Sequence record: OP870146.1
Direction: 5' to 3' (one strand)
Length of the DNA: 64,000 nucleotides
From: Escherichia phage vB_Eco_F27
Numbering within the stretch: the first letter of the stretch is position 1; each line of letters starts with the position of its first letter. Below the pieces are notes generated by a model that worked only from the letters and a program-made list of their open reading frames with translations, did not search any database and was not told the DNA's origin. Of this stretch, positions 43,445 through 49,671 are shown one piece after another. Made by a program: the position numbers and the translations under genes.

Positions 43445-43575
43445 TTTATATTCCAGGCCCCATTTTCATCGATGAACTTAATCCAGTCATTTACAGACCA
43501 TTTAGTTGTATCACCCTTTGGATTAACATTTAAAGTATATAATCCCTGCTTAAAAAGCATTCGTTTGATATTCAT
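43441..43575 (-). CDS. small hypothetical protein
   Basis: Start taken at MNIKRMLFKQ to avoid overlap with upstream gene. Confidence 0.3.
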   Translation of the reverse strand: MNIKRMLFKQGLYTLNVNPKGDTTKWSVNDWIKFIDENGAWNIK

Positions 43576-43582
43576 AATTTCC

Positions 43583-43876
43583 TCAACTGTAACGATAACA
43601 TTCGTTAGCTTTACGTTTGGCTTCAGTATGAGAAGTATTATAATCATACTCTTCTTTACTGTAAACATCTTTTTTCAACTTACGAACTTCTTTGCGGAGT
43701 TGTCGATTCATTTCATTCTTGACTTCAGAATCAACGCCTTTCATACGTTTCCATTTATCTGAGCGGAAAATGTTTTCAACCATGTCTTTGTGGCTAACAC
43801 CGTCAGGAGCTTTACGCTTACCAAAATAGTCGTAATCACGAACTTTCAAATCTTTACGACGATATGTTTTACCCAT
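43583..43876 (-). CDS. hypothetical basic protein
   Basis: Start taken at MGKTYRRKD. Confidence 0.4.
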   Translation of the reverse strand: MGKTYRRKDLKVRDYDYFGKRKAPDGVSHKDMVENIFRSDKWKRMKGVDSEVKNEMNRQLRKEVRKLKKDVYSKEEYDYNTSHTEAKRKANECYRYS

Positions 43877-43883
43877 AAGTACC

Positions 43884-44132
43884 TCAAAGGTTGATTGATA
43901 CAATGCGTTTGATAAAATTCACTTCACTTACTGAAAGGTCTTTAAGACCGATTGATTCTAAACGCTGAGTAAGCGTCAACATCGGGATATAATCCCAATG
44001 AGTTTTATTTGCTTGATAAGTACGAACGCCATTAGCAATTTCAACATACAAATCGGAAATGGTAACGAATACCGGTCGCTCGTCATTAACTTTAAGGGTT
44101 AGAACAACTTTCTTTGAATCTAAACTAATCAT
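43884..44132 (-). CDS. hypothetical protein
   Basis: 82-aa ORF. Confidence 0.4.
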   Translation of the reverse strand: MISLDSKKVVLTLKVNDERPVFVTISDLYVEIANGVRTYQANKTHWDYIPMLTLTQRLESIGLKDLSVSEVNFIKRIVSINL

Positions 44133-44431
44133 GGCTTAATTTCCTTCGCAATTGAACAGAAGATACCACGGTCACAAAGCATTTCACCAATTTCTGGATA
44201 TTTGATTGAACGGTACCAAACATCCAGGCTTGAAACTCTGGTTATCTGTACGGCATTACCATTGACAGAATAGTACTGGTCAACCTTAATTTCTTTATCT
44301 TCAATTGTCATTTTATTTTCCTCTATAGTAGATGGTTTAATCTTAACACATCTATTGAGGATGTAAACTGTTTTATGAAAATATTTTTGATTTGAGAGGG
44401 GCACAAGGAGATAGTGAAGTGAAGATTCCAA
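44129..44431 (-). CDS. hypothetical protein
   Basis: ORF, start uncertain (MESS or MTIEDKEIKV). Confidence 0.4.
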   Translation of the reverse strand: MESSLHYLLVPLSNQKYFHKTVYILNRCVKIKPSTIEENKMTIEDKEIKVDQYYSVNGNAVQITRVSSLDVWYRSIKYPEIGEMLCDRGIFCSIAKEIKP

Positions 44432-44476
44432 TGGATTATATTAGAAATGAGATAAAGAAGACCAGGCGGCACCTGG

Positions 44477-44800
44477 TCAATCTTCTATGATATCAGAGTC
44501 ATATCCTAATGAAATCAAGGACTTTTTAAACTCTGCAATATTCTTTTGTTTCTTATCATTTAAAAATATGACAGGATAACGAATGTTAAGAGATGTGAAT
44601 CCTGCACGTTTAGCAAGAGATACGATTAAAGGACGGTCATATTCAATCTTACCATTATTAGTGAGGACTTTATAAAATGTATAAGGAGCATTGAGCTCCT
44701 TTAAAAGTTTTGTAACAGTATAACATCCTGGACAACGTCCTACTTCTTCAGGGATGCCATAGATTTCAATCTTGTTCTTTAAGTTCGAGTTTTGTTCCAC
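44477..44800 (-). CDS. glutaredoxin/NrdH-like redoxin (start codon uncertain, possibly GTG)
   Basis: KIEIYGIPEEVGRCPGCYTVTKLL ... YPVIFLNDKK thioredoxin-fold CxxC; no in-frame ATG downstream of overlapping upstream ORF; GTG at 44798-44800 preceded by AAGGA. Confidence 0.5.
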   Translation of the reverse strand: MEQNSNLKNKIEIYGIPEEVGRCPGCYTVTKLLKELNAPYTFYKVLTNNGKIEYDRPLIVSLAKRAGFTSLNIRYPVIFLNDKKQKNIAEFKKSLISLGYDSDIIED

Positions 44801-45083
44801 AAGAAATAATTCCTTGGTAAGCCCAATAAGGAGGATTAACAGGATCCTCGCCAGAGTTTTCTTCAGGAAAATAAACCTGGATAACGAAGCCGGATTCATC
44901 AAAGGTAAAATAAACCGTAGGCAGTTCACCTAACAAATCGGCACGAGCGTTGATTTCTTCGAGGTCTTGTTCACGTCCAGCCCAGAAGCTTGGGTTCAGA
45001 CTACATTCATAGAAATAATAGTCATTACCGAACATATCAAAACCATTCCAACTCTCTACTACATACCGCTCAAAACTAATCAT
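44766..45083 (-). CDS. hypothetical protein
   Basis: 105-aa ORF. Confidence 0.45.
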   Translation of the reverse strand: MISFERYVVESWNGFDMFGNDYYFYECSLNPSFWAGREQDLEEINARADLLGELPTVYFTFDESGFVIQVYFPEENSGEDPVNPPYWAYQGIISCGTKLELKEQD

Positions 45084-45085
45084 AA

Positions 45086-45301
45086 TTAAGCCTTTTTATC
45101 AAGAACAGAATTCAGTTTATTAGTAATTTTGTCCAAACGTTCATTGAATTCGCTGGAGGATAAACCCTTTTCTGGAGAAATTAAACTAATCACGAAAAAT
45201 ACGCCAGTAAAAGGAATAAGAAAAATAGCTCCAACTGCCATAAACAAAAAGAACGTTACAGTTGTAAGAAAATCAGCTAAACCTTTACGAAATTTGTACA
45301 T
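45086..45301 (-). CDS. small membrane protein
   Basis: 71 aa with hydrophobic core. Confidence 0.5.
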   Translation of the reverse strand: MYKFRKGLADFLTTVTFFLFMAVGAIFLIPFTGVFFVISLISPEKGLSSSEFNERLDKITNKLNSVLDKKA

Positions 45302-45411
45302 ATTTACCCTTAATTAACTAAGCATTGATAATCATTAAACTATATTGCGAATAAAATTCTGGACCAAAACGAAAAATCATATCATTTATAGTATCCATAA
45401 TGTAATTCAAT

Positions 45412-45882
45412 TTAATCATGTTTCCACACCCCATCGGTATTTGACCAAAGTCGCTGATTATCTGATCCTCGCCACAGCTTTTTAGTCGGAAGATTTTTCT
45501 CATACTTCCCATCAATAATAACATCAACATATTTAAGCATTTCTAGTTGTTTAATATCTTCAAACTTATATCCTGTCCACAACCAAATGCTTTTATTGGG
45601 ATAAAGATTTTTTACTGTTTGAACAATGCAATGAATAACATCTCGGTTATCAGGATAGAGAGGGTCACCTCCGGTTATAGTTAATCCTTCTATATAATCA
45701 TTATTCAAACATTCAATTAATTGTTCTAGTGTTTCACCAGTGAATGGAACACCATTTCTAGCATTCCATGTTGATTTATTATAACACCCTTCGCATTTAT
45801 GCAAACAACCCGTAACGAAAAGAACGACCCTGCATCCAGGGCCATTCACAAAATCGCAAGGATAAAATCTATCATAATTCAT
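45412..45882 (-). CDS. nrdG: anaerobic ribonucleotide reductase activating protein (radical SAM)
   Basis: CLHKCEGC CxxxCxxC motif near N-terminus; 156 aa. Confidence 0.93.
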   Translation of the reverse strand: MNYDRFYPCDFVNGPGCRVVLFVTGCLHKCEGCYNKSTWNARNGVPFTGETLEQLIECLNNDYIEGLTITGGDPLYPDNRDVIHCIVQTVKNLYPNKSIWLWTGYKFEDIKQLEMLKYVDVIIDGKYEKNLPTKKLWRGSDNQRLWSNTDGVWKHD

Positions 45883-47158
45883 TGGTGTTTAACCCTATGC
45901 ATGATTTCTTTATTTTTACCGAGATTAAATCCGCGTTCGTTCGGATTTCCCAAATAACCACATGTTCTTCTTATTGTGTTCATCTTTTTAGGATCAGTTT
46001 CTCCACAAATAGAACAAACAAATCCGTTTTCAGTAGGAGTCATTTCATGGGTACTTCCACATGTAAAACATTTATCTACTGGCATATTAACACCAAAATA
46101 ATCTAAATGTTGTGCAGCATAATCCCATACGGCCTCAAGGCCTTTCAAGTTATTTTTCATATCAGGAAGTTCAACATAAGAAATGTGACCACCTGTCGCA
46201 ATGAAATGATATGGCGCTTCACGAGAAATCTTTTCAAACGGAGTAATATTTTCTTCTACTGAAACATGGAAACTGTTAGTGTACCAACCTTTATCGGTAA
46301 CATCTTTTACGCTTCCATATTTTTCTGTATCAAGTTTACAGAAGCGGTAACAAAGGTTTTCAGCAGGAGTAGAATACAAACTAAAAGCAAATCCAGTTCT
46401 TTCGGACCACTGTTTAAGATGAGCATTCATTTTAGTTAAAATTTCTTGCCCAATATCACGACCGACAAGAATATTCAATTCGTGAATACCAATGTATCCT
46501 AAAGACACTGAACTTCTACCGTTTTTAAATAACTCAATTATGTCGTCATCAGGTTTAAGACGAACCCCGAATGCACCTTCTTGGTAAAGAATAGGAGCAA
46601 CAGTCGCTTTAACACCCTTTAAAGAACTAATTCTACACATCAAGGCTTCAAAACACAGATCCATTCGTTCATTAAACAATTCGATAAATTTCTGTTCATT
46701 GAACTGTGTTCCAATATAAGAATCTAATGCGATACGAGGAAGATTCAGTGTTACAACACCAAGATTATTACGTCCATCAAGAATTTCATTACCGGTTGAA
46801 TCTTTCCACACACTCAAAAAACTGCGGCAACCCATTGGAGAAACAGGAATAGATGAGCCGGTGATAGCTTTATTGTTCTTAGCTGAAATAATATCAGGAT
46901 ACATTCTTTTGCTTGCACATTCTAACGCAAGTTGTTTAATATCATAGTTCGGATCATCTTTATAAAGATTAACACCTTCTTCAACAAACATAACAAGTTT
47001 AGGAAAAATAGGAGTTATTCCATCACGACCAAGGCCTTTAATGCGGTTTTTAAGAATTGCCTTCTGAATCATTCGTTCAGTCCAGTCAGTTCCCGTACCA
47101 AATGTAATTGTTACAAAAGGCGTTTGACCGTTTGAACTGAAAAGTGTATTTACTTCAT
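45879..47158 (-). CDS. nrdD: anaerobic ribonucleoside-triphosphate reductase, exon 2
   Basis: C-terminal glycyl-radical motif RRTCGYLG and Zn site CFTCGS...CSICG; joins exon 1 to give 605 aa. Confidence 0.88.
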
Positions 47159-48202
47159 CATTATATTCAGCATGAGTCGCAAATTCATGCCCGTTTATAT
47201 GAAACAACAAAATTTGGATAGTCCATAGATATGCAACGTTCTTTTATAGTGCTAGGATGAAAATTTAGCGCTTTAGCTGCTTCTATATAAGACGTATACT
47301 TAATACCGTCAACAACCACATATTCAGGAACTTTATGAATAGTAGTCTTAATACTCAAAACAAGAGGATGAGTTTCGACTTCACTTTCAGTGCAATTTAA
47401 ATATTCCGCTGCTTTTTTAAAACTTCTAAAAGTTTTATTTTTAAGCTTTATCGATACTTGTTTTTTACTTTTTCGACTATTGATATTATTTTGCACATGT
47501 TCCTTAGATCTTCCGTTTTTAGCATAATATTCAGCTACAGAAGATTTTATATTGTTTTTATGAGATTCGGATAACACTTTACCCTTATGAGCATCTCTTA
47601 ATTTTTGAATATGTTCTTCAGTATCCGGATGCTTATAAAACTTTTTACCGCCTATGGATTTATTTAAACATTTTTTGCTATAAAAATATTTACGTATGAC
47701 CTCTTCTTCATGTTTTAATGCATCTTTATAACTATCAAATGTTTTTAAAATTATCCATTTAGTAGGTGTATCAGTTTTTAAGCGTTCATTTATATACTTA
47801 GATGACGTTGTGTAAGTTTTCCAGTTTGTGGGCTTGTTTTTAATTGTTCTAAATTTTTTATAACCGATATAAATGTCGCCATTAGAAAACTTAACTAAGT
47901 ATGTAAATGCGTCTTTATCTTTTATTTTAGTACAACGTCTTTTATCCATTTCATTGTTTCACCTCGTATTCATAAGATAATCTTATTTATACAAGATGAC
48001 TGCTGCATGTCGCCATGCAGATTAGACTATATCTTCATCTTTCGATGCCGGTCGTTTCGAATAGCATTAGCTTCTATTCTACACCGCTACATTCATCACG
48101 GTTAGTCGTTAGGCATTTAGTTCAAAAGAACATTTAGCACGGGATTGTCTACTAGAGAGGTTCCCCGTTTAGACCGGTTTTACATGAGCCTGAATTAAAT
48201 TA
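47159..48202 (-). mobile_element. group I self-splicing intron in nrdD carrying a homing-endonuclease ORF
   Basis: nrdD frame interrupted for 1044 nt; exon 1 ends in U, intron ends in G; joining restores ...AFQAYE-YEVNTLFSS...; untranslated structured segment 47950-48202 then HEG ORF. Confidence 0.8.
47185..47949 (-). CDS. GIY-YIG homing endonuclease (I-TevII-like), intron-encoded
   Basis: N-terminal TYLVKFSNGDIYIGY GIY-YIG module; basic C-terminal DNA-binding repeats; lies inside nrdD intron. Confidence 0.75.
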   Translation of the reverse strand: MDKRRCTKIKDKDAFTYLVKFSNGDIYIGYKKFRTIKNKPTNWKTYTTSSKYINERLKTDTPTKWIILKTFDSYKDALKHEEEVIRKYFYSKKCLNKSIGGKKFYKHPDTEEHIQKLRDAHKGKVLSESHKNNIKSSVAEYYAKNGRSKEHVQNNINSRKSKKQVSIKLKNKTFRSFKKAAEYLNCTESEVETHPLVLSIKTTIHKVPEYVVVDGIKYTSYIEAAKALNFHPSTIKERCISMDYPNFVVSYKRA

Positions 48203-48740
48203 ACTCATACGCCTGGAACGCGTCATAGACATCTTTTTCTGTTTTAGATTGAGCATAATTCAACGCATCAGCGATTTGCCATTTTTCTGCATCTTCAACA
48301 TGTTTAGCGTATGTGCGTTTAACATAAGGAGAAAGTACTTTATCGACATTCGCAAATGTAGTTCCGCCATACTGGTGTGAAGCAACTTGTGCAGTAATTT
48401 GTGCCATAATTGCAGTAGCAACGCCAATAGATTTAGGCGTTTCAATTTGAGCATTGCCTAATTTAAATCCATTCTCAAGCATCCCCTTTAAATCGACCAA
48501 ACAGCAATTAGTAAACGGAAGAGCAGGAGAATAATCAATATCATGCATGTGAATGATTCCGCTTTCATGCGCATTCATAATAAAAGACGGGACCATATTT
48601 TTGGCAATGTGCTTAGACACAATACCAGCCATAAGGTCCCGTTGAGTTGGAAAAACACGAGAATCTTTATTAGCATTCTCGTTCAAAAGATCTTTATTAG
48701 TTTTATGAATTAATCCTTCAATTTCTTTTTCAATTTTCAT
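48203..48740 (-). CDS. nrdD: anaerobic ribonucleoside-triphosphate reductase, exon 1
   Basis: MKIEKEIEGLIHKTNKDLLNENANKDSRVFPTQRDL...; in-frame stop 2 codons after splice point. Confidence 0.88.
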
Positions 48741-49210
48741 TTTAAACTCTTTCTAAGCTGCTTTTTGAATGAAGCTATTAATTGTGTTTTAGTATCAGAT
48801 TCATTATATTCAAATCCTCTTTGAAGCATCTCGGCCATCATTTCCTCTTTACCTAGTCTTGAGAACTCTTTAGTTTTGTCTGGAACAAAATTAGGATGGA
48901 TATTATTAGCAGAATAATCTTGTTTCAAATAAGCAAGAAGAGCTTCAAGCCATTCGAGGTAGTCGACATCACGACCTTTAAGACCAGAACGGTTGAACTT
49001 ATGCTTCATTTGTCCTTCTGCTGCGTTGCACAGAGAACAGAGTAATCCACGAACTCTACCGGCTTTTGGCCCGTTTAATTCATGGTCGTGGTCAAGATGG
49101 TTACCTTGAACATCAGGGTCTAATTCACGGTGGCAAATAGGACACTTACCGTTCTGTGCATCATAAAATTTTTGTTTTTCTTCTTTATATTTTGCGCCTG
49201 ATAATAACAT
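48737..49210 (-). CDS. 49: endonuclease VII (Holliday junction resolvase)
   Basis: 157 aa; CPICHREL...HLDHDHELNGPKAGRVRGLLCSLCN near-identical to recalled T4 gp49. Confidence 0.95.
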   Translation of the reverse strand: MLLSGAKYKEEKQKFYDAQNGKCPICHRELDPDVQGNHLDHDHELNGPKAGRVRGLLCSLCNAAEGQMKHKFNRSGLKGRDVDYLEWLEALLAYLKQDYSANNIHPNFVPDKTKEFSRLGKEEMMAEMLQRGFEYNESDTKTQLIASFKKQLRKSLK

Positions 49211-49245
49211 GATAAACCCTTACCTTAAATAGATAAGGGTATTTA

Positions 49246-49671
49246 TTAACTTAAACGTCTTTCTAAATATTCAATGTATTCTGCGGCTGCTTGCATCAGG
49301 TTACCTTCATAGCCGTCGTTATTTTCTTGTCCGGCTAATTTAGCTAATGCATAAGAAATTCGTTCACCTTCGAATTCACCAAGTTTACTACCTAGCACAT
49401 CCGCAATATCAGCCGAATCAATTTCTTCGAGTTCATCTATTGAATGTGATTCCCAGAAGCACCAAAGAGAAGTATCACGGTCATAGATGCAAAGTTTCTC
49501 ACCAGTGTTCAACATCACTTCAATAATGCCATGGTCGCCATAACCATCTTCGGTAGTAGTACCAATTACCTTGATGATTGTATCTTTCTTTAATTCAGGA
49601 AACTTGACTTGTAGTTCTTCATCTTCTTTAACAATCTTGAACCATTTACCGCGAGTTTCAGAAATATTCAT
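49246..49671 (-). CDS. hypothetical protein
   Basis: 141-aa ORF. Confidence 0.45.
   Translation of the reverse strand: MNISETRGKWFKIVKEDEELQVKFPELKKDTIIKVIGTTTEDGYGDHGIIEVMLNTGEKLCIYDRDTSLWCFWESHSIDELEEIDSADIADVLGSKLGEFEGERISYALAKLAGQENNDGYEGNLMQAAAEYIEYLERRLS

Follow-up and report, generated by a model that had tools for sequence, protein, structure and literature searches.

On the minus strand of the analyzed window, a stretch of 64,000 nucleotides from Escherichia phage vB_Eco_F27 (record OP870146.1), we find the T4-type nrdH gene of a Mosigvirus, which is very probably translated by ordinary Shine-Dalgarno-directed initiation at a GUG codon (44800-44798). We put the probability of this reading at about 0.9. 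In the mechanism that we propose, the ribosome would bind the AAGGA motif and initiate 10 nt downstream at the GUG with fMet, and the product would be a glutaredoxin-fold protein of 107 aa that carries CPGC as its motif, encoded by the last gene of an nrdD-nrdG-55.8-ORF082c-nrdH block. We infer that ribosomes actually initiate at this codon, that the GUG would keep NrdH expression modest, and that the passage of ribosomes along ORF082c may contribute to holding the initiation site open. A GTG-start nrdH is already known from the T4 reference and from several Mosigvirus records, and we saw no evidence of anything unusual about the feature. Its biological weight is small, and the practical value of the analysis lies in annotation, where comparative evidence fixes the 107-aa product.

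The nrdH locus and its annotations

The window comes from a Mosigvirus, a T4-like phage with ~99% identity to PhAPEC2 and mogra. When an 851-nt query around nrdH was searched, 636 phage records were matched, the best of them being those of the Mosigvirus phages PhAPEC2, mogra and mar005P1, at ~99% identity and 100% query coverage. At least 95% identity to the query was found for 136 phage records, and the same nrdH layout recurs in more than 130 at 95-99% identity. The initial annotation had considered a sequencing error or frameshift at this position, and of this we saw no sign; because 136 records share at least 95% identity, an error private to this record is excluded.

The features considered are collected in Table 1. 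On the minus strand, the genes run in the order nrdD-nrdG-55.8-ORF082c-nrdH and are followed by a terminator-like hairpin and by 55.6. This is the synteny expected of T4-type NrdH, namely nrdD-nrdG-55.8-(ORF082c)-nrdH-terminator-55.6. The hairpin occupies 44478-44460 and, together with a T-rich tail, lies directly 3' of nrdH; it is labelled as a terminator in PhAPEC2, and an equivalent hairpin follows nrdH in T4. A match to a sigma-70/T4-early-like promoter (TTTACA, a 16-nt spacer and TAAGAT with TG; 44340-44367, minus strand) lies just past the nrdH terminator and ahead of the 55.6 homologue, a position that would fit with nrdH closing its transcription unit.

Table 1 Features of the nrdH region in the window
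Feature	Position	Strand	Basis
nrdD, C-terminal part	47210-45879	-	ORF
nrdG	45882-45412	-	ORF
gp55.8 homologue, predicted membrane protein of 71 aa, preceding ORF082c	45086-45301	-	phrog_1930 (E=1.9e-35); PhAPEC2 and T4 annotation
ORF082c homologue (RB69 ORF082c), 105 aa, phrog_2749	44766-45083	-	ORF; stop TGA 44768-44766
nrdH CDS, 107 aa, CPGC, GTG start, stop TGA 44479-44477	44477-44800	-	Similarity to T4 NrdH; phrog_22; mogra and F2 annotation
GTG initiation codon of nrdH (proposed)	44798-44800	-	Counterpart of the GTG that starts the T4 reference CDS
AAGGA, putative Shine-Dalgarno motif, 10 nt ahead of GTG	44811-44815	-	Sequence; GG invariant in the 10-lineage alignment
Dual-coding overlap of 35 nt (ORF082c C-terminal tail and NrdH N-terminal tail)	44766-44800	-	Site variation, tail lengths, ORF082c model
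In-frame ATG, start of the PhAPEC2 140-aa product; rejected as start	44897-44899	-	Comparative evidence
Intrinsic terminator-like hairpin, GACCAGGTGCCGCCTGGTC then TTCTTTATCT, overlapping the nrdH stop	44451-44478	-	PhAPEC2 annotation; T4 equivalent

Further upstream, nrdD is split in the window. A 254-aa ORF of the GIY-YIG type (…NGDIYIGYKK…; 47185-47949, minus strand) lies between the N-terminal part (48195-48740, a 181-aa ORF) and the C-terminal part (45879-47210, a 443-aa ORF). In near-identical records, this ORF is called 'intron-associated endonuclease 2' or a homing endonuclease between two nrdD pieces, and nrdD of PhAPEC2 is uninterrupted. We take the arrangement to resemble the T4 nrdD intron with I-TevII. 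An Rfam scan of 43500-49500 returned no RNA family at gathering thresholds, group I introns included.

The T4 genome serves as the reference for the start of nrdH. Its CDS (NC_000866; NP_049686.1, 41805-42113) translates as V-KQNKIEVYGIPDEVGRCPGC... (V-KQNKIEVYG...), corresponding to a GTG start, and as this translation begins with V, GTG is therefore the accepted annotation for the type phage. There, AAGGA is found 6 nt upstream of the GTG, the in-frame TAG stop of 55.8 is found 9 nt upstream, and the 105-aa ORF082c is absent between 55.8 and nrdH. The T4 gene is thus like that of the window in its CPGC motif, in its place downstream of nrdD-nrdG-55.8 and upstream of 55.6, in having GTG behind AAGGA and in the 3' hairpin. 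The two differ in that the start lies 5 nt past the 55.8 stop in T4 and 35 nt inside the ORF082c coding region in the window, in the Shine-Dalgarno spacing (6 nt in T4, 10 nt in the window), and in the N-terminal tail of the protein, which is 5 residues longer in the window (VEQNSNLKNK, as compared to VKQNK in T4). GUG starts are otherwise established in T4, for example in gene 41 (PMC12152347), which is unrelated to nrdH and shares with it only a GUG start in a tightly packed T4-type transcription unit.

Other public annotations of nrdH conflict with one another, and this was counted against the GUG reading. The exact 107-aa GTG-start CDS is annotated in mogra (QHR67109.1) and F2 (YP_010068801.1). 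In PhAPEC2 (PhAPEC2_70; L001 1752-2174), the product is a 140-aa 'putative glutaredoxin' starting at the equivalent of ATG 44899, and in HX01 (L026) and PhiZZ6 (L014) no nrdH CDS is annotated. The JS98 CDS (L017 731-997) starts at an internal ATG, one residue ahead of RCPGC, while that of Marfa (L019 767-1000) begins 24 codons past the real ATG, with the result that the CxxC motif is missing from it. Most of these inconsistencies trace to the non-ATG start, the Marfa case being a missed ATG start. The 10-nt Shine-Dalgarno spacing, which is near the upper limit of what is usual, was likewise counted against initiation at the GUG. Our literature searches found no statement or test of the nrdH start codon, and for NrdH of T4 or Mosigvirus they yielded neither an experimentally determined N-terminus nor evidence from ribosome profiling or mutations.

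Start codon and coding frame

The nrdH frame is open from GTG 44929 to the TGA stop, giving a 150-aa ORF in which the canonical in-frame starts are GTG 44929, TTG 44902, ATG 44899-44897 and GTG 44800-44798. The initial annotation had pointed to the last of these, with AAGGA 10 nt upstream and 35 nt inside an upstream 105-aa gene. These coordinates were reproduced in our analysis, with AAGGA at 44815-44811 and the 105-aa ORF extending over 45083-44766, so that the GTG lies within the final 12 codons of ORF082c but is read in another frame. The same annotation stated that the frame contains no ATG, which is correct downstream of 44899, but an in-frame ATG is present at 44899, deep in ORF082c, and is the one used by PhAPEC2.

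To compare start contexts, we considered ~60 loci from annotated phages and IMG/VR (L numbers in the text), some of which are duplicates. In T4-type loci (L004, L011-L014), in L006 and in the Gaprivervirus loci P479/L028-L030, the GTG is preceded by an in-frame stop codon at a distance of 6-9 nt; a longer product is thus impossible in these loci and the GTG is the sole canonical start. Among them, contig L006 encodes an NrdH that is 97% identical to that of the window but has a different upstream sequence. In a DNA alignment of 10 lineages, neither the GG of the Shine-Dalgarno motif nor the TG of the start codon varies. At the first base of this codon, eight lineages have G, contig L047 has A and Winklervirus X20 has T. 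The L047 start shares its context with JS98 (...ccaaggagttatttcct ATG gaccaaaag). Such an NTG pattern, as read from the alignment, is the behavior of a start codon, unlike that of an internal valine codon. The Shine-Dalgarno motif itself is AAGGA in T4, AAGGAG in JS98 and P479, and GGGGG in L006. The base directly before the GTG varies between T and C, which changes a Cys of ORF082c to Arg and leaves the GTG unaffected. GTG and the Shine-Dalgarno motif are kept far beyond chance across diverged genera.

In nearly all loci that bear ORF082c, the nrdH start lies inside the 3' end of this gene and the codon is GTG or TTG, the exceptions being L047, with ATG at the same codon, and PM2, in which the two frames are fused. 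Where ORF082c is absent, 30 loci use ATG, with the exception of seven GTG loci (T4-type and L006) and L065 (TTG). Among more distant homologues, an ATG is found 1-4 codons before (I/V)EIYG in Jiaodavirus, Marfavirus, Gelderlandvirus, Acinetobacter phages Ac42 and KARL-1, Pseudotevenvirus, RB49-like phages and Aeromonas phages. The GUG start is common to the clade of Tequatro-, Mosig-, Dhaka- and Gaprivervirus. None of the orthologues compared (~60 loci) has a long N-terminal extension that is conserved. The initial annotation had named orthologues with a conserved, longer, ATG-initiated protein as the finding that would speak against it; we found none, and the distant orthologues that start with ATG have shorter N-termini.

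Non-ATG starts of nrdH arose more than once, with TTG being found both in Winklervirus (L016/L031/L032, ~686-700; two candidates, 15 and 6 nt before VEIYG) and in an unrelated 235-kb phage contig (L065, ~595), where it lies behind AGGTG. In the P0002 group of Logan assemblies (4 members), a variant ORF082c C-terminus (…YQGNYFSWNKTQT) reads the third frame through the nrdH start region, implying a 1-nt indel between the Shine-Dalgarno motif and the GTG in those assemblies. As to its origin, the GTG may have arisen or been kept in the context of the overlap (…Y-Q-G-I-I-S-C/R-G… = ..CAAGGA..TGTGG..), with T4 inheriting it after the loss of ORF082c. The sequence at the T4 junction, ...AGTAAGG|AATAGTTGTG, could have resulted from a deletion between two AAGG motifs.

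The frame that is under selection was read from a codon-position test on four ORF082c-bearing genomes of equal length (the window, L007, L008 and HX01). Between the ATG of ORF082c and the GTG of nrdH, 37 of 283 sites vary, and 30 of these 37 are third positions of ORF082c, corresponding to second positions of the nrdH frame. For the shorter segment from ATG 44899 to the GTG, second positions of the nrdH frame account for 12 of 15 variable sites. Downstream of the overlap, 60 of 289 sites vary, with 40 of the 60 being third positions of nrdH. Within the 35-nt overlap, there is only one variable site, as is expected for dual coding. As 30 of the 37 upstream variable sites are third positions of ORF082c, the extension, including that of the 140-aa product of PhAPEC2, is not coding. 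The extension also varies freely at the protein level (MNPASLSRF...ARILLILLIG in one case, MHLDLLSRF...AMILLTRHTG in another), while the ORF082c protein is nearly constant. The view of the initial annotation that the hydrophobic extension of the 150-aa ORF is implausible thus agrees with our results, as the extension behaves as non-coding sequence and it is the ORF082c frame that is conserved. GTG initiation, which it had offered as a possibility, is likewise supported by the T4 annotation, the upstream stops, the ATG and TTG variants at the codon and the codon-position pattern.

ORF082c, for its part, is a real gene under purifying selection. It matches phrog_2749 (E=6.9e-50) and shares 40-50% identity with its homologues in Dhaka-, Gapriver-, Winkler- and Mosugukvirus. 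In its AlphaFold model, which is confident (pLDDT 81, pTM 0.72), only residues 95-105, that is, those encoded by the overlap, are disordered (pLDDT <50). The N-terminal tail of NrdH ranges in length from 5 to 10 residues between genera. Only tails are encoded by the overlap, a flexible one at the C-terminus of ORF082c and a variable one at the N-terminus of NrdH.

Other readings of the overlap

Two readings in which NrdH is part of a larger polypeptide should be considered, and we give neither any real credence. A longer protein, of 140 aa from ATG 44899-44897 as in PhAPEC2 or of 150 aa from GTG 44929, would carry the hydrophobic extension; the frame is indeed open from 44929, contains the in-frame ATG and is annotated in this manner as PhAPEC2_70, and JS98, HX01 and L007-L010 likewise have no stop in the extension. 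However, it is closed by stops in T4, P479/L028-30, L006, L033 and L055, no purine-rich Shine-Dalgarno motif precedes ATG 44899, the 12 of 15 variable sites noted above alter the amino acids of the extension with ORF082c conserved, and distant orthologues begin 1-4 residues before IEIYG. Scarcely any more belief is due to a programmed +1 frameshift, or a frameshift of sequencing or assembly, that would join ORF082c and NrdH in one polypeptide. Such a fusion could draw on the fact that the NrdH frame begins one base past an ORF082c codon boundary, and on Pectobacterium phage PM2 (NC_028940; L039 308-906, L066), where both frames form a single 199-aa CDS annotated as 'glutaredoxin', with the junction tctaGTGgaaaaaaatatcctaaaATTGAA. 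Yet this junction consists of an A7 run and is available from one genome only. With A8 in its place, the two-gene layout would return, nrdH having its usual GTG start and ORF082c ending at TAA; the single CDS in this one genome may be a real gene fusion or a homopolymer error. Moreover, the 35-nt overlap of the window contains neither a homopolymer nor a known +1 shift site, its layout is shared by more than 130 near-identical records, and T4 lacks ORF082c altogether.

A third reading accepts the short product but makes its translation depend on ORF082c, either through re-initiation at AUU 44770-44768 or a scan-back of 30 nt to the GUG, or through the melting of an AAGGAA/UUUCUU hairpin that masks the Shine-Dalgarno motif. 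The nrdH start lies inside ORF082c in the ORF082c-bearing loci (with PM2 being fused), the sequence AUUGA places the stop UGA 44768-44766 and a near-cognate codon 1 nt apart, and in Jiaodavirus and RB49-like phages the nrdH ATG overlaps the upstream stop as ATGA. In addition, AAGGAA is paired in the minimum-free-energy fold of the window with the UUUCUU that directly precedes the GUG, and the equivalent stretch is paired in JS98. We nonetheless consider such dependence improbable. T4, L006 and other T4-type loci keep the GTG and the Shine-Dalgarno motif without ORF082c, and because these phages keep the same start in its absence, coupling, which the initial annotation had offered as an alternative, is not required, though it may modulate efficiency. 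When the start regions of the window, T4, JS98 and P479 were folded, no structure was more stable than those of shuffled sequences (z -0.44 to +0.29), and hence we do not claim a regulatory hairpin. AUU 44770 was rejected as a start, since Winklervirus has GUU at this position and no Shine-Dalgarno motif belongs to the codon. A more speculative thought, which we hold to be a long shot, is that the non-AUG start in the 3' end of ORF082c is a deliberate expression link, with coupling setting NrdH at a fixed low ratio to ORF082c and with the two proteins acting together. If true, ORF082c might, for example, serve as an adaptor that connects the redoxin to NrdD/NrdG, the anaerobic ribonucleotide reductase, and the single polypeptide of PM2 would be a natural 'Rosetta-stone' fusion. 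Against this, T4 gets by with no ORF082c, and an error in sequencing a homopolymer may account for the PM2 fusion.

Relation of NrdH to known redoxins

The NrdH protein of the window is an orthologue of T4 NrdH, with 85-87% identity to it along the entire domain (85% in the alignment, 86.6% by tblastn to T4-type phages) and matches phrog_22, 'thioredoxin domain' (E=1.2e-15). In 13 diverse homologues, C23 and C26 are invariant, and the CPGC motif follows the first beta-strand ((I/V)EIYG...C-P-G-C). The match to the Pfam glutaredoxin family (PF00462) covers 29 of 60 profile positions with E=9e-4, and its score of 19.8 bits is below the gathering cut-off of 22.9. When the single sequence was compared to the PDB, T4 glutaredoxin was matched at E=0.01, whereas a profile of the 13-member family matched it (1AAZ) at E=2.3e-10, with profile positions 4-87 aligned to residues 3-85; with the same profile, cellular glutaredoxins were matched at 3e-4 to 2e-3. 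As the E of EIYG aligns with residue 3 of 1AAZ, the fold needs ~2 residues before EIYG, and the residues before ~K10 form a tail, which fits with its variable length between genera. The single-sequence AlphaFold2 model of NrdH (pLDDT 47) was too poor for fold comparison.

T4 glutaredoxin, the nrdC product also called 'T4 thioredoxin' (1AAZ/1ABA), is thus the closest solved structure by sequence, and it too has its CxxC after strand beta-1. It is a distant paralogue, with ~25-30% identity as estimated by eye, in which the motif is CVYC rather than CPGC; relative to it, the NrdH of the window has ~15 extra C-terminal residues (LISLGYDSDIIED).

Bacterial NrdH-redoxins, such as E. coli NrdH (1H75; GlrX_NrdH), are similar to the NrdH of the window in being small CxxC redoxins of the thioredoxin/glutaredoxin fold class that are encoded beside ribonucleotide reductase genes. 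The bacterial genes, however, are linked to class Ib nrdEF, whereas nrdH of the window is linked to class III nrdDG. Bacterial NrdH-redoxin is an electron donor to class Ib NrdEF and is reduced by thioredoxin reductase, and its hallmarks are a C(V/M)QC active site and a WSGFRP motif. Both motifs are absent from the NrdH of the window, which has CPGC instead. The NCBIfam NrdH models gave no match to it at E<=0.1, no PDB NrdH chain was matched at E<=1 with either the single sequence or the family profile, and BLASTP against E. coli NrdH gave E=7.5. Its sequence makes the protein a paralogue of T4 glutaredoxin (NrdC) and not a bacterial NrdH-redoxin, so that 'NrdH' is the T4 gene name and not a statement of family membership. 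The term 'NrdH-like' used in the initial annotation is hence apt in the sense of T4 naming only, as there is no match to bacterial NrdH-redoxins. The T4 nrdH record carries the note 'has glutaredoxin activity', which is an annotation; annotation and synteny together are the basis for a putative redoxin function and for a putative link to the adjacent class III reductase. Petrov et al. 2010 placed nrdH among the quasi-core genes of auxiliary metabolism (PMC2993671).

In two phages, in-frame internal deletions of nrdH damage the redox motif. Contig L047 (IMGVR_UViG_2974741249_000001, ~580-800) reads IEIYGIPETVMDDKPLIV, with CPGC and ~35 residues lost, and Citrobacter phage PhiZZ6 (L014, MT176424, 686-970) reads IEVYGCGCQS, with IPDEVGRCP lost. 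Given that these deletions damage the motif, they suggest that nrdH is dispensable in some lineages.
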